Source: a phage. From it: 64,000 nucleotides of DNA. Positions 6,899 through 58,281 of this stretch are shown here, in pieces. Made by a program: the position numbers and the translations under genes. Positions within the stretch are counted from its first letter, which is position 1, and every line of letters begins with the position of its first letter. The notes below the pieces were generated by a model that saw only the letters and a list, made by a program, of their open reading frames with translations, was not told the origin of the DNA and made no database searches. The stretch is taken from the NCBI GenBank assembly GCA_022897995.1, contig GCA_022897995.1_4763.1. One strand, 5' to 3'.

Positions 6899-8722
6899 AT
6901 GAGTGAGTTTCGCATTTTATCTGATCGTGAACATGTCCTTAAGCGTGCAGGAATGTATATAGGATCAACAACTTACGAAGAACATCAACGTTTCCTGTTC
7001 GGTAAATGGACAAAAATTTCATACGTTCCTGGACTGGTTAAAATCATTGATGAGATCATCGACAACTCTGTAGACGAGGCGATCCGCACTAACTTTGAAT
7101 TTGCCAATGTGATTAGCGTCGATATCCAAAACAATATTGTTACGGTAACAGACAATGGTCGCGGTATTCCTCAACATATGGTTACTACCCCAGAGGGCAC
7201 GCAGATTCCGCAACCTGTAGCCGCATGGACACGAACAAAAGCAGGGTCTAACTTTGATGATACCAATCGATTAACGCAAGGGATGAACGGTGTTGGGTCG
7301 TCGTTGTCAAATTTCTTTAGCGATTGGTTTACTGGTGTAACCTGTGACGGCGAAACAGAAATGACCGTTCAATGCACAAACGGTGCTGAAAATATCACAT
7401 GGTCATCAAAACCATCAAAATTGAAGGGAACGAAGGTTACATTTTGTCCAGACTTCGACCACTTCGAAGGTTATATGATGGACAACTCTGTTTTAGATAT
7501 TGTTCATGATCGTCTGCAATCATTGAGCGTAATATTTCCTAAGATCACGTTTAAGTTTAATGGTAAACGTATTGTTAGTAAGTTCAAGGATTATGCTAAA
7601 CTATACAATGATGATCCGTTTGTCATTGAAGATAAAAACTTTTCACTTGCCCTAGTTCCTGCGGTCGAGGGAGAAGGTTTTAAATCAGTATCCTTTGCTA
7701 ATGGTCTGTTTACCAAAAACGGGGGAACACACGTAGACTACGTGACAGATGATCTTTGTGAAGAGATTGTAAAACGAATCAAGAAAGAATATAAGGTTGA
7801 TGTTACTAAAGCTGCGGTTAAGTCTGGATTGACCTGTATTCTTATTGTTCGTGAATTGCCTAACCTTCGTTTTGATTCACAGACAAAAGAACGATTGACT
7901 AACCCGACTGGTGATATCAAGCGTCATATTGATCTTGATTTTAAAAAGCTGGCTAAAGTCATTGCGAAGAAAGAAAACATTATCATGCCTATTATTGCTG
8001 TAGTCCTGGCACGCAAAGAGGCAGCCGATAAAGCGGCAGCGACTAAGGCAGCAAAGGCAGCAAAACGGGCTAAGGTGGCAAAACACGTTAAAGCTAACCT
8101 TATTGGAACTGACGCAGAAACTACCCTGTTTTTGACGGAAGGTGATTCCGCGATCAACTATCTGATCTCTGTACGTGATCAAGATTTACATGGCGGTTTC
8201 CCGTTGCGAGGCAAAACTCTTACAACGTGGGAACAACCGGAGGCAAAGATCGTTAAGAACGCCGAAATTTTTAACATCATGGCGATCACTGGCTTGCAAT
8301 TTGGTGTTGATGCATTGGAAGTTATGCAATACAAAAATATTGCGATTATGACAGACGCTGATACTGACGGGATCGGGTCTATTAAACCTAGTCTGATCTC
8401 TTTCTTTGCACGTTGGCCTGAATTGTTCGAAGATGGACGAATCCGGTTTATCAAAACACCTATTATCATTGCTGAACCAAAGAAAGGTGATGATGTTCGA
8501 TGGTATTATGACCTAGAAGATTTCGAGAACGACCGAGATAATATCAAAGGTTACAACATTCGATATATCAAAGGTTTAGCATCGCTCACAGAATCCGACT
8601 ATCATCGCGTGATCAACGATCCTGTCATGGAGATCATCACGTTACCGGAAAACTATAAAGAGCTATTCGATTTGCTCTATAGTGAAGATGCAGATCAGCG
8701 CAAAATTTGGATGTGTAGCTAA
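6899..8722 (+). CDS. 39: DNA topoisomerase II large (GyrB-like ATPase) subunit, single-ORF gp39 with gp60-equivalent region
   Basis: 607 aa; GHKL ATPase N-terminus, Toprim-like IMTDADTDG; contiguous ORF with an Ala/Lys-rich linker; no bypass or split. Confidence 0.9.
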   Translation: MSEFRILSDREHVLKRAGMYIGSTTYEEHQRFLFGKWTKISYVPGLVKIIDEIIDNSVDEAIRTNFEFANVISVDIQNNIVTVTDNGRGIPQHMVTTPEGTQIPQPVAAWTRTKAGSNFDDTNRLTQGMNGVGSSLSNFFSDWFTGVTCDGETEMTVQCTNGAENITWSSKPSKLKGTKVTFCPDFDHFEGYMMDNSVLDIVHDRLQSLSVIFPKITFKFNGKRIVSKFKDYAKLYNDDPFVIEDKNFSLALVPAVEGEGFKSVSFANGLFTKNGGTHVDYVTDDLCEEIVKRIKKEYKVDVTKAAVKSGLTCILIVRELPNLRFDSQTKERLTNPTGDIKRHIDLDFKKLAKVIAKKENIIMPIIAVVLARKEAADKAAATKAAKAAKRAKVAKHVKANLIGTDAETTLFLTEGDSAINYLISVRDQDLHGGFPLRGKTLTTWEQPEAKIVKNAEIFNIMAITGLQFGVDALEVMQYKNIAIMTDADTDGIGSIKPSLISFFARWPELFEDGRIRFIKTPIIIAEPKKGDDVRWYYDLEDFENDRDNIKGYNIRYIKGLASLTESDYHRVINDPVMEIITLPENYKELFDLLYSEDADQRKIWMCS

Positions 8723-48390: not shown

Positions 48391-48714
48391 ATGACCGTTA
48401 AAACTCCTAAAGCACTTGGTGACTATGTGATCATTGAAGCTAAAGCAGAAAGCGCAGGGACCGAAGTTAAAAGCTCTATGGGTATCATTATTGAGCAAAA
48501 GCGCACTATGGGCGAGATTCCGCTGGTAGGTAAGATTATTGATATTGGTGAAACTGTAGATAAAGAATTGCTGGGTAAAATTGTTCTACTGCCACATGGC
48601 AAGATGAATAAAGTTCCTCATCCAGACGTTATTAACGGCGTTAAGAAGGAAGAAGAGATCGACCTGAAATGGACTGTAACGCACAAACAGAATATTGTGG
48701 TAGTTTACGGTTAA
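48391..48714 (+). CDS. 31: Putative co-chaperonin gp31 (GroES-like)
   Basis: 107 aa; size and position between cd and ligase as in T4; GroES-like beta-rich pattern; assigned mainly by synteny. Confidence 0.5.
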   Translation: MTVKTPKALGDYVIIEAKAESAGTEVKSSMGIIIEQKRTMGEIPLVGKIIDIGETVDKELLGKIVLLPHGKMNKVPHPDVINGVKKEEEIDLKWTVTHKQNIVVVYG

Positions 48715-48725
48715 TGATTTTAAAC

Positions 48726-48752
48726 GGCGGGAAATAATCCCGCCTATATTTT
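48726..48752 (+). terminator. Terminator-like hairpin
   Basis: GGCGGGA-aataa-TCCCGCC followed by TATATTTTGG. Confidence 0.4.
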
Positions 48753-48796
48753 GGCTATATGATTTTGTAAGTTATTGATTATTAAGGAATTTTATT

Positions 48797-48961
48797 ATGA
48801 AAACTATGAATGTAAACATCCACGAAATCCATACCGAAGTATTCACCGAAGAAGACCAGTTTGGTGTATGGGTAAATCCTCATTCGATTACTATCGATAT
48901 TCCTCATGACGATTATGATCCGTTCTCTCTGATTAGCGAGATTAGTTTCAATGACTTCTGA
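48797..48961 (+). CDS. Small acidic hypothetical protein (54 aa)
   Basis: ATG 48797; below track cutoff; overlaps start of next gene. Confidence 0.3.
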   Translation: MKTMNVNIHEIHTEVFTEEDQFGVWVNPHSITIDIPHDDYDPFSLISEISFNDF

Positions 48962-49430
48962 AATTGATATCTATGCGGGTGGACCTTATCCATCGGGTGA
49001 ATTGAGCAACTTCAATAAAAGACCATTCCGTCTATTTGGTTGCGATATTAACAGCACAGAAGGATTTTTACAGGGATTAAGATTCAAGAATCCAGAAAAG
49101 CAAAGAGAAATCTTTTTGATGCACGGTGGCAAAGCAAAAAGAACCGGAAGAACTGAAAAGATTGAGAATCACATGCTATATTTTCAGGGTCGCCCGATTC
49201 ATCGAATGAGTGAGCATTATTACAGACTGGTACATCTGGCATTTGTTACGATGGCACGGAATAACCCAGAATTTTGTAAAGCATTACTCGCTACCGGAAA
49301 TAAGAAATTACGTCATAGCATAGGTGGAACTGATCCGTTAAAGACTATATTGACCGAATCAGAATTTTGTAGTATCCTCAATGATATTCGTGAACGTTTA
49401 ACAAAACGAGGTGAAAATGTCAATTCTTAA
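48951..49430 (+). CDS. NADAR/YbiA-like domain protein (DUF1768-like)
   Basis: 159 aa; LSNF...PF, STEGFLQGLRF, GRTEK, ALLATGNKKL resemble NADAR family blocks. Confidence 0.5.
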   Translation: MTSEIDIYAGGPYPSGELSNFNKRPFRLFGCDINSTEGFLQGLRFKNPEKQREIFLMHGGKAKRTGRTEKIENHMLYFQGRPIHRMSEHYYRLVHLAFVTMARNNPEFCKALLATGNKKLRHSIGGTDPLKTILTESEFCSILNDIRERLTKRGENVNS

Positions 49431-50913
49431 TATCATTAACCAGCTTGCAGCAACAGACAAAACATCGCTGAAAGAAAAGATTCTGAAAGAATCTGCAAGC
49501 AATGAAACGCTGAAAGAATGCTTTTATCTGGCATATTGCAAACAGGTTACGTTTGGCGTAAAGAAATACGATAAACCATCGCGCTATTCGTCTGTATTGT
49601 CTTTATCCGGTGCATTACAAGTCTTTAAAAATAAACTTGCCACGCGTCAAGTAACTGGTAATGCTGCATTACAGCTAGTTACCGATACTCTGACTTGCTT
49701 GTCAGAAGACGATGCTAAAGTTGCAATGATGGTATTGAATCGAGACCTAGAATGCGGTTGTTCCGCTACCACCGCAAACAAGGTATGGAAGAAACTGATC
49801 CCCCAGCAACCATGCCACCTTGCATCGTCATATTCTGATAAGGCTATTGCTAATATCAAATATCCGGCGTATGCACAGCTTAAAAGCGATGGCGCTCGTG
49901 GTATGGCTGATATTGACGGGGAAACATTAGCAATCTATACCCGTTCAGGTAATATCTATCAGGGACTTGATGATTTGTTTTCTGTTTTAGAGCGTCTACG
50001 AGGCCGTGGAATTGTTCTAGATGGCGAATTGGTATATATGCCTACCCTTTCGCAAACACCAGCGCAGAACTTCGTTGAGAGCGTTTATGATGGTACTCTG
50101 TCATGGATATTTGAAGAAGAGGAAATGCCATTAACGCCAGTAGCGGAAGCAGTGAAAGAATCCGTTGTTGCAGATCGTCAGACCGGAAATGGTATCCTCA
50201 ACAAATCACTGAAAGGAACTATTCCAAAAGAAGAAGCCCAATGTATTGTTTACACTGTCTGGGATGTTATCGACCGTGATGTGTATTACGGAAACGAGAA
50301 AGCAACGAAGCAATATAAAGATCGATTCGAAGAACTAAAACAGATTGTTGAAGAACTTAACGATCCTCGTGTGCAGATAATCGAAAATACTGTAGTTAAC
50401 AATATCGATGAAGCTCGCGAAGTATATCATCGCTATGTAAACATGGGCTTAGAAGGTATTATCCTTAAAAATTTACATGGTGTATTTGAAGATCGTCGCA
50501 GTAAAGATCAGGTTAAATTTAAAGAAGTGATTGACTTCGACGCGGAAATTGTTGATGTATATCCGCATAGTAAAGATCCTAATAAGGTAGGCGGTTTTAC
50601 TGTCCGTAGTGCGTGCGGACGAATGATGACTAACACCGGGTCGGGATTGACAGACACCACAACCGAAAAAGGTGATGATGGTATCGAACGTGTGATTCCG
50701 TTAGATCGTCGAAATGAACTCGACCGAGAAATGTTATGGGCTGACCGTCATAACCTGATTGGAAAAGTCATTGAGATGACATGCAACGGGTATATCCGCA
50801 GCAAATCACGTAAAGAAGATGAACCGGAGTTCTCTTTATTTCTCCCGATCATCAAACGTATTCGCTACGACAAGACCACTGCAAATACAGTAAAAGAGGT
50901 ATTCGATGTGTGA
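49417..50913 (+). CDS. 30: ATP-dependent DNA ligase gp30
   Basis: Adenylation motif KSDGAR, LDGELVY, EGIILK, and C-terminal blocks match T4 DNA ligase as recalled; ATG 49417 preferred over GTG 49411. Confidence 0.9.
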   Translation: MSILNIINQLAATDKTSLKEKILKESASNETLKECFYLAYCKQVTFGVKKYDKPSRYSSVLSLSGALQVFKNKLATRQVTGNAALQLVTDTLTCLSEDDAKVAMMVLNRDLECGCSATTANKVWKKLIPQQPCHLASSYSDKAIANIKYPAYAQLKSDGARGMADIDGETLAIYTRSGNIYQGLDDLFSVLERLRGRGIVLDGELVYMPTLSQTPAQNFVESVYDGTLSWIFEEEEMPLTPVAEAVKESVVADRQTGNGILNKSLKGTIPKEEAQCIVYTVWDVIDRDVYYGNEKATKQYKDRFEELKQIVEELNDPRVQIIENTVVNNIDEAREVYHRYVNMGLEGIILKNLHGVFEDRRSKDQVKFKEVIDFDAEIVDVYPHSKDPNKVGGFTVRSACGRMMTNTGSGLTDTTTEKGDDGIERVIPLDRRNELDREMLWADRHNLIGKVIEMTCNGYIRSKSRKEDEPEFSLFLPIIKRIRYDKTTANTVKEVFDV

Positions 50914-52676: not shown

Positions 52677-52928
52677 ATGGCTAACATCGAAACCGCAAAG
52701 AAAATCGCTAAAGACCTGAACGTTAAAGGCTTCCGTAAACTGAAATTACAGCGTGTACGCTACACCATCGGCAAACAGTGCTCTTTCATGAGCGAAGAAG
52801 TTGCTAACAGCCTCATCGATAACCTGATCGCGGCTGGCTGGGAAGTTACGGATCTGAAAACTTGCAGCGAACTGGCTAACAAAGGTCTTTTAGATTCTGT
52901 TACTATCAAACCAATGGGGGCAGCGTGA
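52677..52928 (+). CDS. Hypothetical protein
   Basis: 83 aa ORF downstream of cassette. Confidence 0.35.
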   Translation: MANIETAKKIAKDLNVKGFRKLKLQRVRYTIGKQCSFMSEEVANSLIDNLIAAGWEVTDLKTCSELANKGLLDSVTIKPMGAA

Positions 52929-53641
52929 AACAAAAATTAATATTCTGCAACTTTGACGGATCGGGGATAATGGGGCTAGAATGGGCTAAAGCAGGTCATA
53001 AGGTGATCTGCTTTAATGCTGACGATGGCGACCACGGTACATACAAAAAGTATAATACCAGATTTGAACATCCAAACATTACCTATGTAAACACATGGAT
53101 TGATTTGAACTGGCTGGAAAGAGCAATGGACCTTGAATGGGGGAAACCGGATATTATCTTTGCATTCCCACCGTGCACAAATTTAGCTGTTAGTGGCGCT
53201 GCACACTTTGAACGAAAGAAACGAGAGCAAGGACCATTGATTCAAGTTCATGATGTGAGGGCAGCTAAAATAACCGCTTATTTGGGTGAATGGCTAGGAG
53301 TTCCCTACATGATAGAGAATCCTGTAAGCGTTATCTCTAGCATGTGGCGTAAGCCTGATTACATGTTCCATCCGTGGGAATATGGTGGTTATTTGCCGGA
53401 AGATGATAAACATCCTACGTTTCCTGAGTATATCGCCGCCCGTGATATGTACCCGAAAAAGACTTGCTTATGGACCGGACAAGGCTTTATAATGCCAGAA
53501 AAGAAACCGTTGCCGATTAATAAAGGGTACAGTAAACAGCATTCTAAGCTAGGCGGGAAAGGAACCAGAACAAAGACTATCAGGTCACTTACCCCGCGAG
53601 GATTTGCAAAGGCAGTATTTGAAGCCAATAAGGATCTATAA
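52925..53641 (+). CDS. Truncated DNA C5-cytosine methyltransferase-like protein
   Basis: 238 aa (GTG start overlapping previous stop); motif I-like FDGSGIMG, motif IV-like FAFPPCTNLAVSG (catalytic Cys), motif VI-like MIENPV; no target-recognition domain. Confidence 0.45.
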   Translation: MKQKLIFCNFDGSGIMGLEWAKAGHKVICFNADDGDHGTYKKYNTRFEHPNITYVNTWIDLNWLERAMDLEWGKPDIIFAFPPCTNLAVSGAAHFERKKREQGPLIQVHDVRAAKITAYLGEWLGVPYMIENPVSVISSMWRKPDYMFHPWEYGGYLPEDDKHPTFPEYIAARDMYPKKTCLWTGQGFIMPEKKPLPINKGYSKQHSKLGGKGTRTKTIRSLTPRGFAKAVFEANKDL

Positions 53642-53970
53642 TGAGATTGTTTAAGTATTCTCTAACGTCAAATTACGATAAACAAGGTCATTGCATCCGT
53701 TGCCCTAATTGCCATAGCCATAACATTGAAAGCAAGATCACCGATCATATTGATGGACTTTGGTCGCCAGCAAGCGAGATAGAATACTATTGCGCTGATT
53801 GTGGAATTGTAGTAGCATATTGGGCATACGGATCATATGATCCTTACTTCCAGATGGGAGAGCGTTCAATCCCTGCTCTTATCTGGAGAATTAAGAACAA
53901 TATCCGGCATTCATGGGATGAGTTCTTAAAAGATATTGATTTACGTGATGATCCATTCAGGAGACTATAA
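53641..53970 (+). CDS. Zinc-ribbon protein
   Basis: 109 aa; CIRCPNC...CADCG four-Cys pattern; ATGA overlap with preceding gene. Confidence 0.35.
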   Translation: MRLFKYSLTSNYDKQGHCIRCPNCHSHNIESKITDHIDGLWSPASEIEYYCADCGIVVAYWAYGSYDPYFQMGERSIPALIWRIKNNIRHSWDEFLKDIDLRDDPFRRL

Positions 53971-53971
53971 C

Positions 53972-54487
53972 ATGAACAGATTAACGCCTAAACGCCGTTA
54001 CTATACCAATACTAAAAACTTTGTCATCTCTGTTTATGAGGCGTGGTTAGAAGATGGATATATCAACATGAACCCAGATTATCAGCGTCCTTTAGTATGG
54101 GACACCGAAAACAAACGTATGTTTATCGAAAACCTGATTAATGATTTTCCGGTTGGTGCTATCGCAATGGCTAAGATTGATGATGGCTCTCGCTATGAGA
54201 TCGAAATCGTGGACGGTAAACAGCGTTTAAACGCAATATTCTCTTTCATGAAGGATGAGTTTAGCATTGCTGGTAATGATGATTCTATGCTGTATTACAG
54301 CGATTTTACGCCAGCAGAAAAGCGACGTTTCCGAAATCTCGGACTACCAGCGATCATGATGGAAGAGAGCACACGAGAAGACCGATTAGAGTATTTCTAC
54401 AAAACAAACTTTTTCGGTGTGCCTCAATCGGAAGAACATCGCCAGCACGTAATTGCCCTATTGCAAGATGAGCAATTAAAAAAATAA
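53972..54487 (+). CDS. DUF262/ParB-like nuclease domain protein
   Basis: 171 aa from ATG 53972; NPDYQRPLVW...FPVGAIAM...IVDGKQRLNAIFSF resembles the DUF262 N-terminal domain of GmrSD-type enzymes. Confidence 0.45.
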   Translation: MNRLTPKRRYYTNTKNFVISVYEAWLEDGYINMNPDYQRPLVWDTENKRMFIENLINDFPVGAIAMAKIDDGSRYEIEIVDGKQRLNAIFSFMKDEFSIAGNDDSMLYYSDFTPAEKRRFRNLGLPAIMMEESTREDRLEYFYKTNFFGVPQSEEHRQHVIALLQDEQLKK

Positions 54488-54844: not shown

Positions 54845-56896
54845 ATGTTTAACTTAGAAATCGACGATCTAATGATTGAATCTTTCGAGAAATGGCTGTT
54901 GACGGAAGAGGAAGAAAACTTTGGCAGTATTGCTCCGGTACAGTGCTTAAAGCCTAAGCAGAATCCTAAACAGCTTTTTGCAGTACAGACACGCGATAAA
55001 GATGTGATTGTCCGTCTTTGCAACTTCACCAACAAAACACCTAAAATTGTTCGTATGGGTGACAAGACCGCACATGTTGTACTGTGCGAAATGAACAAAA
55101 GCGGTCGTATTGTACAGCTTAAAAATGGTCTAGGCGATAACCCGATTGCAGTTATGGCAAGTGCTTTTGATGTGGTTATGGAAACAGCCCGTAAAGCGCA
55201 ATTAGACGCTGTTATGTTCCGTTTTAACGTATCCCGCATGAAAGGTAAGACCGAACTGGTTAAGCGCGTTATAGAGCGTTTGGTGCGTCGTACACCGAAG
55301 TTCGAAGTATTCCAGCAGGAAGTAATGACCAGCAAAAAGATCGCTTTGGTTGTTGTCAAGCGTCGCGGGATGGCGATTGATAAGATTAAAGGGATTAAAC
55401 TTGATGATTCCCTGTTCACTAAAGTAGAAAGTGATTTAGGTGATCGCTGGGTATCTAAGGCTACTGGCGAATCTCTGACTAAAGATGAAGCGTATGCGGC
55501 TAGCCTTGCATCAGAAGAAGAACGAAACGCGGAAGCGGAACAACGTGTAGCGGCTAAATCTCGTTTGACTAAAGAAGAAATGCTGAAAACTCAAGCGACC
55601 TATAACAGCGACTATGTGAATCATCCAGAAAAAATTAATCTTAAACCGGAAGAAGATATCACCGAAGCCGAACCTAAGAAACAGTTTAATACTCTGATTG
55701 ATCGTCAAGCCTTAGAACGTTCAACCGCTCGTTCTCTGAATGACTGGACAAGTGATATTATCACTCGCTATGGTTTCATGCGTACTATTTTTGAAAGCGA
55801 AGCCGATGCAAAATACGCAGTAAGCGAACTGGTAAAAGTTCAGGACCAATATGATCCGTTGTCTGCGGAAGTTATCGCAGCATCAATCAAACGCTTAAAA
55901 GAAATCATGAATGAAGAAGTGTTTGAAAACAAGATCACCGCCCTAGCAATGGATCGAGTAGACCAGTCTATGCCAGCAGATGTAAAGGCTGAAATGTTGC
56001 GTAGTCACATCACGCAGATTAAAACCGATGCCCTACGTAATGTTGCTTCCGGTATGTTTGAAGCAATTGCTAGCAACATGGGTGAAATGATGGCAGATAT
56101 TGATCTTGATCTGCCGGGCGCGGAAGGTTTTGTGTTGAGCGAGTATGCCGATGCAGCATACATCAATATGAACAACTTCCTAACCGACCGTAAGCTGGAA
56201 GAGTTTGACGGCATCGCAGATCCAGAAGAATTGGTCAAGATGTGCGATGCACTGGATAATGCCTTCTCTAACTATGGCGTTAAACTTGATCCGGGTACTA
56301 TTCTGTATCGTGGTATGGACTTCCGGTCTCAAATGTGGGAAACTGCACGTAAGCAAAAAGCGTTTTACTTTAAAAACTATGTGAGCACTTCCCTTGCACC
56401 TAACATTTTTGGCGGCTGGAATGCAAACGTGGCTAGTGCCGTTGCTGGTGTTGATTCTATGGCTGGATCTCGCGGTGAAGGTGGCGCTAATGTTGCTTTC
56501 TCCATTGCTGGCGCGGAAAACATCCCTGTATTGCCAGTAGGTAACAAGGCATTTGCTTACAAAGAATGCGAGATTTTACTTCCTCGCGGCGTTGTGTTAT
56601 CCTTTGATACGGTAACTCGTGCCACGGCATCGACGGATTCACAAGAAACTTATTACATTGAGGCACATATTATGAACAAAAATGAACTGGCAGCATTACA
56701 AGAATCTGGCGAGATGATCGCGGACGGTGATGCATTCATCCGTGAAGGTGTTGTTAAACCTGCTTCTGACCTGTCTTTCTCCAGCTTTATTACCGAAGCT
56801 AAAACCGAACGTAAGAAAGCAGATAAGGCAACTCTACGTCAGCTTATCGCTGATCTGGTATCTGTAGACGCAATGCCAGATAAATTTAAAATGTAA
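54845..56896 (+). CDS. alt: ADP-ribosyltransferase Alt
   Basis: 683 aa (T4 Alt is 682); ART triad LYRG...FYFKNYVSTSLAPNIFGGW...ECEILLPRG; position between 30 and the baseplate block. Confidence 0.85.
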   Translation: MFNLEIDDLMIESFEKWLLTEEEENFGSIAPVQCLKPKQNPKQLFAVQTRDKDVIVRLCNFTNKTPKIVRMGDKTAHVVLCEMNKSGRIVQLKNGLGDNPIAVMASAFDVVMETARKAQLDAVMFRFNVSRMKGKTELVKRVIERLVRRTPKFEVFQQEVMTSKKIALVVVKRRGMAIDKIKGIKLDDSLFTKVESDLGDRWVSKATGESLTKDEAYAASLASEEERNAEAEQRVAAKSRLTKEEMLKTQATYNSDYVNHPEKINLKPEEDITEAEPKKQFNTLIDRQALERSTARSLNDWTSDIITRYGFMRTIFESEADAKYAVSELVKVQDQYDPLSAEVIAASIKRLKEIMNEEVFENKITALAMDRVDQSMPADVKAEMLRSHITQIKTDALRNVASGMFEAIASNMGEMMADIDLDLPGAEGFVLSEYADAAYINMNNFLTDRKLEEFDGIADPEELVKMCDALDNAFSNYGVKLDPGTILYRGMDFRSQMWETARKQKAFYFKNYVSTSLAPNIFGGWNANVASAVAGVDSMAGSRGEGGANVAFSIAGAENIPVLPVGNKAFAYKECEILLPRGVVLSFDTVTRATASTDSQETYYIEAHIMNKNELAALQESGEMIADGDAFIREGVVKPASDLSFSSFITEAKTERKKADKATLRQLIADLVSVDAMPDKFKM

Positions 56897-56913
56897 TTTT
56901 TAAGAAATAATGG

Positions 56914-56974
56914 TTGACTCAAACGGGGACTAGTTTTATACTAGCCCCGTTTTCTGTTATATGGGAGGTTTAAA
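56914..56974 (+). promoter_or_regulatory. PeSL-like promoter cassette
   Basis: TTGACT 56914-56919; ACGGGGACTAG/CTAGCCCCGT stem; TATACT 56937-56942. Confidence 0.5.
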
Positions 56975-57799
56975 ATGTTCAAACAATTACAGGATTTTCG
57001 TCTTTCAGAAGAATCACGCGAATCAATGATGGAACGTATGGATAATTACATAGAAACATATGGCATTGAGGGGATTAATGGTTACATGATCACTGAGATG
57101 ATCAGCGATCAGATTAATTTTGATGATTATGTGAAGATTATCCGCTTCCTTGAGCGTGAGACACAAGATTATGGATTTGTCAAGAAAATCATTAATGTGA
57201 TGTATGAAGTACACTCCGAAGATTTTGGAGATAATGTATTCAAACATTACAAACATAACAACATAACCCCAGCAGAATATAATGCAATCTGTGATTATGT
57301 GTCTGAACAATACGAATGGGTAAATGGTGCTCTCTTAGGGGAAGAAGACATGACCGACGAGATATCAGAAATTGTTGATTTGATGGATTGTGTCATGGAT
57401 AAAACCGAAAAGTTAAACGGTACTCTTTATCGCGGTCAACATCTTGACATTCAGACAATAGAGCGTATTATTGAAGATAAGGAATTTACCTTTAAAAACT
57501 TTGTGTCAACCAGCATGACACCAATCATCTTTGGAGGCTGGCTTTCAAATAGCACTAGCCTTTATTGTGAGAATCGATATGAATCCATGACCGGAAAGAT
57601 GCAACATTCTTGTAATGTATCATGGGTAATTGACGTAAAAGATCATAAAGGTTTTGTTGTTGGATCAATTGCATGGAATCCTTGCGAATGTGAAGTAATT
57701 TTACCGCGCGGGACTTGCATAAAGGTAAACGACGTAGTAGAATCCTTCGGCGATGAGAATCGTAGACAATTTACAATTTTCGGTGAGGTGACTAAATGA
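56975..57799 (+). CDS. Short Alt-like ADP-ribosyltransferase paralog
   Basis: 274 aa; LYRGQHLD...FTFKNFVSTSMTPIIFGGW...CECEVILPRG parallel the catalytic motifs of Alt but without its long N-terminal region. Confidence 0.6.
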   Translation: MFKQLQDFRLSEESRESMMERMDNYIETYGIEGINGYMITEMISDQINFDDYVKIIRFLERETQDYGFVKKIINVMYEVHSEDFGDNVFKHYKHNNITPAEYNAICDYVSEQYEWVNGALLGEEDMTDEISEIVDLMDCVMDKTEKLNGTLYRGQHLDIQTIERIIEDKEFTFKNFVSTSMTPIIFGGWLSNSTSLYCENRYESMTGKMQHSCNVSWVIDVKDHKGFVVGSIAWNPCECEVILPRGTCIKVNDVVESFGDENRRQFTIFGEVTK

Positions 57800-58281
57800 A
57801 AATGATTAAACTGATTGGTCTTGCGGCTGCATTCATGCTTACTGGTTGTGCTAACATGGAAGCTATGATGAATGCTAAATCAGATCCGGTTTTCTTGCTT
57901 CGTGAATGTAAAGCAGCATATGCAAGCGATGACCAGATCGAATCGTGCTTTATTTCTAAAATGGAACGTCGAGACGTGGATCGCGTTAAAGTTGGTTTAG
58001 CACCACAAACGCAGATGTTCAAAGATGCGATCAAAGAAGCGCGGGAAGAGAAAGCACGAGAAGAAAAGAAGCGTCAAGAAGAATTGCGCAAACAGAAAGA
58101 AGAGTCTATACAACTTGAGAAGATGAAAGCAAGGGATCGTTGTATTATCATGTCTGACATGCAGATAGAGCAAGAAGCAAGAAAAGCAGCATTAAACGGT
58201 GATTATGACCGTTATGAAGAACTTAACAGCGCAGAATTTCAAGCTAAGGCACTAAAATATTGCAATGATTTAGCAAAATAA
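57796..58281 (+). CDS. Predicted lipoprotein with coiled-coil region
   Basis: 161 aa; signal peptide with lipobox LTGC; K/E-rich coiled-coil central segment. Confidence 0.5.
   Translation: MKMIKLIGLAAAFMLTGCANMEAMMNAKSDPVFLLRECKAAYASDDQIESCFISKMERRDVDRVKVGLAPQTQMFKDAIKEAREEKAREEKKRQEELRKQKEESIQLEKMKARDRCIIMSDMQIEQEARKAALNGDYDRYEELNSAEFQAKALKYCNDLAK

Follow-up and report, generated by a model that had tools for sequence, protein, structure and literature searches.

A gene 30.3 (adfN) orthologue between genes 31 and 30 of a Krischvirus encodes a phage-type NADAR, a predicted DNA guanine-ADP-ribose glycohydrolase

Described NADAR enzymes and phage AdfN

The gene considered here is the orthologue of T4 gene 30.3 (adfN) in a 64,000-nucleotide stretch of phage DNA (GenBank assembly GCA_022897995.1, contig GCA_022897995.1_4763.1; the whole stretch is referred to as the window), and its product is compared below with the described NADAR proteins. 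The gp30.3 proteins had earlier been assigned bioinformatically to the NADAR superfamily as a "phage NADAR" branch, which is defined by a His in the last strand, where the YbiA family carries Glu and the DarT-associated NADARs carry Asp. Schuller et al. (2023) reported that NADARs hydrolyse the guanine-N2-linked adenosine diphosphate ribose (ADP-ribose) made by DarT1, with a catalytic set of Glu, Lys, and Asp. A 2024 study from the Suskiewicz group found that purified T4 gp30.3 removes guanosine-linked but not thymidine-linked ADP-ribose, and that it gives no rescue of DarT1 toxicity in uninfected cells.

The part played by gp30.3 during infection was then reported by Johannesman et al. (2025, Nat Commun, PMC11825919), who traced the resistance of T-even phages to DarTG1 back to gene 30.3 and gave this gene the name adfN (anti-DarT factor NADAR). 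T4-GT7 with adfN deleted is DarTG1-sensitive, and the same is stated for the wild-type T4 counterpart. Phage RB69, which is DarTG1-sensitive and carries a frameshifted allele with the last 15 residues missing, is rescued by ectopic adfN, and a truncated T4 AdfN shows reduced activity. Purified AdfN strips ADP-ribose from DarT1-modified DNA, and the E36A mutant of the T4 protein is inactive in vitro, with partial rescue in vivo. Independent confirmation came from a 2025 transposon-sequencing preprint (HIDEN-SEQ), in which T4 adfN insertions were depleted specifically on DarTG1 hosts. The Johannesman study further described AdfN-Bas32 and AdfN-Bas60 from T5-like and Vequintavirinae phages, which, like the present protein, are phage-encoded orphan NADARs. 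These two derive from other NADAR branches by independent acquisition, do not belong to the PF08010 type, and neutralise DarT1 directly without a phage context; both counter DarTG1 and not DarTG2, and all three of the phage NADARs tested in that study counter DarTG1, none of them DarTG2. The family, its NADAR fold, the catalytic residues, and the anti-DarTG1 role are thereby already published (2012-2025), although the original prediction for this locus presented the gene as an open anti-DarT candidate. The role that it proposed is the one demonstrated experimentally for the T4 orthologue (PMC11825919 and the HIDEN-SEQ preprint).

Family, fold, and conserved residues of the Krischvirus protein

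The original prediction described a 159-aa NADAR/YbiA-like open reading frame (ORF) between genes 31 and 30. The ORF and all of the sequence blocks quoted for it were found, i.e., SNF at residues 19-21, PF at 25-26, STEGFLQGL at 35-43, and LLATG at 112-116, and phmmer searches of the flanking ORFs against T4 proteins confirmed the location, which is also that of T4 adfN. A Pfam search placed the protein in PF08010 (Phage_30_3, "Bacteriophage protein GP30.3"), the family of T4 AdfN, with 135.4 bits (E = 1.5e-39, cutoff 36) and an alignment spanning profile positions 2-138 of 138. The PHROGs assignment is phrog_652, whose category is unknown function. BLASTP against T4 gp30.3 (NP_049816, from NC_000866) gave 39% identity (E = 5e-31) between residues 3-150 and T4 residues 2-152, reaching the final residue of the T4 protein; compared with T4 AdfN, the Krischvirus protein has Arg in place of K43 and a C-terminal tail that is 7 residues longer. 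When a library clustered at 50% was searched exhaustively with HMMER, 987 representative proteins scored E <= 1e-3; by tblastn, 1510 phage records contain a homologue, among them phages of Escherichia, Klebsiella, Aeromonas, Acinetobacter, and Vibrio.

Closer to the locus, the 1.7 kb around adfN is 96.5-97.3% identical to RB49/JSE/GEC-3S-type genomes (25 listed of 60 matches), and on this nucleotide identity the window is a Krischvirus, i.e., a T4-like coliphage of the RB49/JSE/GEC-3S type. Public databases already contain this very protein sequence (in a cluster of 167 member sequences), which is 100% identical to a protein of phage ECD7. The orthologue in phage JSE is already labelled gene 30.3, while most Krischvirus records say "hypothetical protein". 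Between this gene and that of JSE, 11 codons differ synonymously and two neighbouring residues are changed (E49Q, K50R), a small sample that is consistent with purifying selection. Because of the 135-bit match to PF08010, the homologues in 1510 phage records, and the mostly synonymous change relative to JSE, the ORF is, on sequence grounds, a genuine gene rather than a chance ORF. Two antisense ORFs within it (48986..49132 and 49084..49242) have no support. The T4 record NC_000866 lists a product, 30.3', that is read out of frame inside gene 30.3 (7403..7630); no same-strand internal ORF of at least 40 aa lies inside the Krischvirus adfN.

The structure prediction suggested along with the original prediction recovered the NADAR/YbiA fold in a confident AlphaFold2 model (12-sequence alignment), with a mean predicted local distance difference test score (pLDDT) of 94.2 and a predicted template modelling score (pTM) of 0.89. 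The model shows the bare YbiA/NADAR core, with a helical core and small flanking sheets, and no N-terminal extension. In a Foldseek search, only E. coli YbiA (PDB 2B3W) and the Phytophthora NADAR (PDB 8BAU) fell below E = 1e-3, and a profile-profile comparison (hhalign) of the family alignment with YbiA gave 90.7% probability. The similarity to these two proteins and to PF08719 is marginal in sequence (18-26% identity), and YbiA-type proteins, with their last-strand Glu rather than His, have been assigned other roles, namely as an N-glycosidase of riboflavin intermediates and in swarming. Structure and profile-profile comparison link the protein to generic NADAR (PF08719) at the superfamily level, whereas within the superfamily the protein is almost certainly an AdfN-family NADAR, of the phage gp30.3 subfamily.

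The protein also differs from DarG1, represented by E. coli C7 and Geobacter lovleyi (PDB 8BAT; BC4488 NADAR family), which is about 230 aa long, has a DNA channel formed by an N-terminal extension, carries Asp at the position of the phage His, is encoded beside darT1, and is active in uninfected cells. In contrast, the phage protein is a bare core and an orphan, and its T4 version is fully effective only during infection. The genes adjoining it are the 54-aa ORF and the ligase gene, with no adjacent darT1, its last-strand residue is His and not Asp, and PADLOC gave no match. An identity as a defence-system component was rejected on the same absence of a PADLOC match and on an NCBIfam score of only 14 bits versus 240 for DS32_2 ("NADAR family anti-phage protein"). 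An identity as DltA, the D-alanine carrier-protein ligase, was likewise rejected: a phmmer search of PDB sequences had 7vhv as its top match (E = 4e-4), and NCBIfam PRK04813 scored E = 0.059. The DltA match is attributed to chance because the aligned part is a fragment of a 485-aa adenylation enzyme, the fold of that enzyme is absent from the structure searches, and the family profile matched YbiA only.

Residue conservation was counted over 162 family sequences aligned to the family hidden Markov model. The N-terminal LSNF..PF block (counts in Table 1) pairs with "FSNFAAWP" of YbiA in the alignment. The catalytic Glu is E37, equivalent to T4 E36, E. coli C7 NADAR E88, and Phytophthora NADAR E43, and Glu stands at this position in 157 of 161 family sequences. 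H122, which is His in 158 of 162, directly follows a short strand (residues 119-121) in the model; hhalign sets it opposite the Glu of "LVEH" in YbiA, and its T4 equivalent lies within "LKHSI". The original prediction had named the absence of catalytic acidic residues as evidence against it. One such residue, E37, is present, and the second acidic position is occupied by H122; this single acid does not refute the assignment because phage NADARs carry a histidine at the second acidic position. The near-invariant R85 (159), T135 (160), and E138 (160) are all present. The C-terminal helix, which the RB69 allele lacks, is intact and well modelled here. Family membership, fold, residue conservation, the intact C-terminus, and synteny are established for this gene by the present analysis.

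Predicted function and competing explanations

By analogy with T4 AdfN, the protein likely acts during infection as a guanine-ADP-ribose DNA glycohydrolase and thereby counteracts DarTG1-type defence. The enzyme activity and the anti-DarTG1 phenotype are carried over from the published work on the T4 orthologue, and the added step would be that a copy 39% identical to it, with Arg in place of Lys, acts alike in the infection of its own phage. In the proposed mechanism, a DarT1 toxin of the host would ADP-ribosylate the guanine N2 in replicating phage DNA. AdfN, as a single-domain N-glycosidase of the NADAR/YbiA fold, would then bind the ADP-ribose with R44 on the pyrophosphate and with E37 and H122 around the distal ribose. 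Hydrolysis of the ribose-guanine bond would restore unmodified DNA, and replication could proceed on DarTG1-carrying E. coli. For a gene mostly labelled "hypothetical protein", this gives a likely function as an orphan, antitoxin-like eraser of DarT1 marks, which may be of use in annotation and in judging whether a given therapeutic or environmental T4-like phage will grow on E. coli that carries DarTG1.

Several points weigh against this assignment. The first is R44, the sole departure among the functional residues. The equivalent lysine binds phosphate (T4 K43, E. coli C7 NADAR K95). In T4 AdfN, K43A causes a partial loss (PMC11825919), and the K95R mutant of E. coli C7 DarG1 hydrolyses in vitro but fails to rescue DarT1 toxicity in cells (Schuller et al. 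2023). Since K95R is active in vitro yet not protective, Arg at position 44 probably permits catalysis here, with an uncertain efficiency in vivo. Across the family, this position is Lys in 148, Arg in 9 (about 6%), and another residue in 4 of the 162 sequences, with 1 gap; the Arg is common to JSE and to a 69%-identical metagenomic relative. The second is the phage context, as T4 AdfN is fully effective only in the infection of T-even phages (Tevenvirinae) and may need a phage partner (PMC11825919). In the JSE record, Krischvirus is assigned to Straboviridae with no Tevenvirinae subfamily, so that the present phage, in contrast to T4, lies outside Tevenvirinae there; the window also lacks the T4 neighbours 30.1 and 30.2. 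Furthermore, the generic NADAR model (PF08719/DUF1768), which the original prediction had named for a profile check, scored 16.3 bits (E = 0.012), below its gathering cutoff of 35.1; that part of the check came out negative, while PF08010, the correct profile for this branch, gave the strong match described above. Lastly, a search of one literature library found no paper joining Krischvirus and DarTG.

One alternative, which we regard as unlikely, is an active NADAR that acts in vivo mainly on a substrate other than DarT1-modified phage DNA, e.g., guanine-ADP-ribosylated RNA, the damage left by YarT- or pierisin-like ADP-ribosyltransferase (ART) toxins, or soluble ADP-ribose derivatives from host immunity. 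Every tested NADAR family also removes guanine-linked ADP-ribose from RNA, the Lys-to-Arg change at the phosphate-binding site could shift the preference, and the lack of antitoxin activity of T4 AdfN in uninfected cells would fit another substrate. However, both genetics and the unbiased transposon screen revealed no phenotype of the T4 orthologue except DarTG1 counter-defence, and the T4 enzyme falls outside the group reported to remove cytidine-linked ADP-ribose. The direct neutralisation of DarT1 by the Bas32 and Bas60 NADARs, and the activity of the tested phage NADARs against DarTG1 and not DarTG2, likewise argue for DarT1 marks as the substrate.

It is similarly doubtful that the Lys-to-Arg change and the loss of 30.1 and 30.2 mark the Krischvirus protein as an AdfN variant with an altered substrate range or partner dependence. 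If so, the variant may be tuned to another DarT1 lineage, to guanine-ADP-ribose in RNA, or to another ART toxin, or it may act without the T-even cofactor, and a comparison with T4 AdfN could expose the basis of the "T-even context" specificity. The sole fresh angle of this locus is the natural, clade-specific R44, a ready-made allele for structure-function comparison.

The same substitution could instead indicate a weakened or inactive relic that is folded but no longer protective, having Arg for the essential Lys and having lost the T4-type partner genes. The failure of E. coli C7 NADAR K95R to protect cells fits such a relic, and RB69 shows that natural inactive alleles persist. However, K95R is still catalytically active in vitro, and Arg not only recurs in 9 of the 162 divergent family representatives but is also shared throughout the Krischvirus clade. 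Besides its full length, the gene retains all of the other conserved residues, differs from JSE mostly by synonymous changes, and has persisted although all of its T4 neighbours are gone, which together make a relic improbable.

It is very improbable that AdfN is a housekeeping eraser, rather than an anti-defence factor, that reverses or tunes the marks of the phage's own ARTs, namely Alt and the 274-aa paralogue encoded with it some 5.4 kb downstream of adfN. In favour of this reading, the two ART genes lie within the same early-gene region and T4-like phages express NADARs alongside ARTs. Against it, Alt is annotated in the JSE and T4 records as a mono-ADP-ribosyltransferase acting on RNA polymerase, a protein, whereas the NADARs characterised so far cleave, as N-glycosidases, the ADP-ribose attached to guanine (in some cases to cytidine) in nucleic acids. 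In addition, T4 can do without adfN on hosts that lack DarTG1, and the ART genes neither adjoin adfN nor share its operon. Because Alt targets a protein while the characterised NADARs act on nucleic-acid bases, a functional link of the ART genes to adfN is unlikely. The original prediction had counted three ART-like proteins in the window. Two of them were confirmed (Table 1), and a third was found neither among 19 further ORFs searched with Pfam nor by phmmer of both ARTs against all ORFs of the window.

Gene neighbourhood

In T4, ten other genes occupy the interval between cd and the ligase gene (30.1, 30.2, 30.4-30.9, rIII, and 31.2), and no detectable homologue of any of them was found anywhere in the window. 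Since these ten are undetected, 30.3 is the only member of this variable block retained by the lineage. In contrast to T4, adfN here adjoins the ligase gene directly, without 30.1 and 30.2, and it is preceded not by 30.4 but by a Krischvirus-specific 54-aa ORF, which occupies the place of 30.4 and runs 11 nt into the start of adfN. This ORF has no T4 counterpart, no Pfam match, and no PADLOC match; its identity as a 30.4 homologue was rejected, as a search for T4 30.4 in the window was negative. The ligase ATG at 49417 sits 14 nt inside the adfN end, and the identical 14-nt overlap is found in the JSE annotation. A program-made ORF list starts the ligase at GTG 49411, whereas ATG 49417 (MSILNIINQ...) agrees better with the sequence and with the annotation of JSE. 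From their arrangement, the 54-aa ORF, adfN, and the ligase gene look like one tightly packed unit, in which the 54-aa ORF is probably co-transcribed with adfN.

The terminator-like hairpin and T-run after gene 31 are suggestive of the upstream edge of this block; shuffled sequence also yields one such site. A scan for sigma-70-like promoters around adfN found no more sites than in shuffled sequence. Downstream, the ORF encoding an HNH endonuclease overlaps the ligase gene end by 8 nt and has a counterpart in JSE; it is probably an HNH gene of the homing or free-standing type that was inserted beside gene 30.

Table 1. Coordinates of adfN, its conserved elements, and other features of the window
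Feature	Position	Strand	Basis or remark
Gene 31, GroES-like co-chaperonin	48391..48714		phmmer E = 1.5e-15 to T4 gp31
Terminator-like hairpin and T-run after gene 31	48726..48754 (hairpin 48726-48744 plus tail)	+	7-bp stem with 6 GC pairs, then TATATTTTGG
54-aa ORF	48797..48961	+	phrog_15277, E = 6e-42; annotated in JSE as EpJSE_00222
adfN (gene 30.3 orthologue)	48951..49430	+	ATG start, 159 aa; phage-type NADAR; predicted DNA guanine-ADP-ribose glycohydrolase
LSNF..PF N-terminal conserved block, residues 18-26	49005..49028	+	S19 in 153, N20 in 155, F26 in 155 of 162
Codon GAA, catalytic E37	49059..49061	+	Alignment to T4 E36
Codon AGA, R44	49080..49082	+	Position of the phosphate-binding lysine
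Codon CAT, H122	49314..49316	+	Phage-NADAR signature histidine, last-strand position
C-terminal helix, residues 136-157	49356..49421	+	DSSP on the model; begins after T135 of LTExEF, includes E138
Gene 30, ATP-dependent DNA ligase	49417..50913	+	phmmer E = 1e-110 to T4 gp30
HNH endonuclease ORF, 158 aa	50906..51382	+	Overlaps the ligase gene end
Alt, 683 aa	54845..56896	+	Pfam ADPrib_exo_Tox
274-aa Alt paralogue	56975..57799	+	Pfam ADPrib_exo_Tox; phmmer E about 1e-15 versus Alt
161-aa ORF, overlapping, after the ART pair	within 54845..58281	+	phrog_16112; no Pfam match

Two further ORFs lie between this block and the ART genes. A 238-aa ORF (52925..53641, +) matches the PHROG "DNA methyltransferase" (phrog_757, E = 1e-90) and has no Pfam match at E <= 0.01; its JSE homologue is annotated as a DNA methyltransferase. 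A 183-aa ORF (53936..54487, +) carries a GmrSD_N (DUF262-type) domain (Pfam E = 5e-20) and matches the PADLOC profiles NsnA (E = 1.3e-20) and PD-T4-2_A over the N-terminal part only of these 360-385-aa profiles. This ORF may represent one half, truncated or stand-alone, of a phage-borne type IV restriction-like or defence protein.
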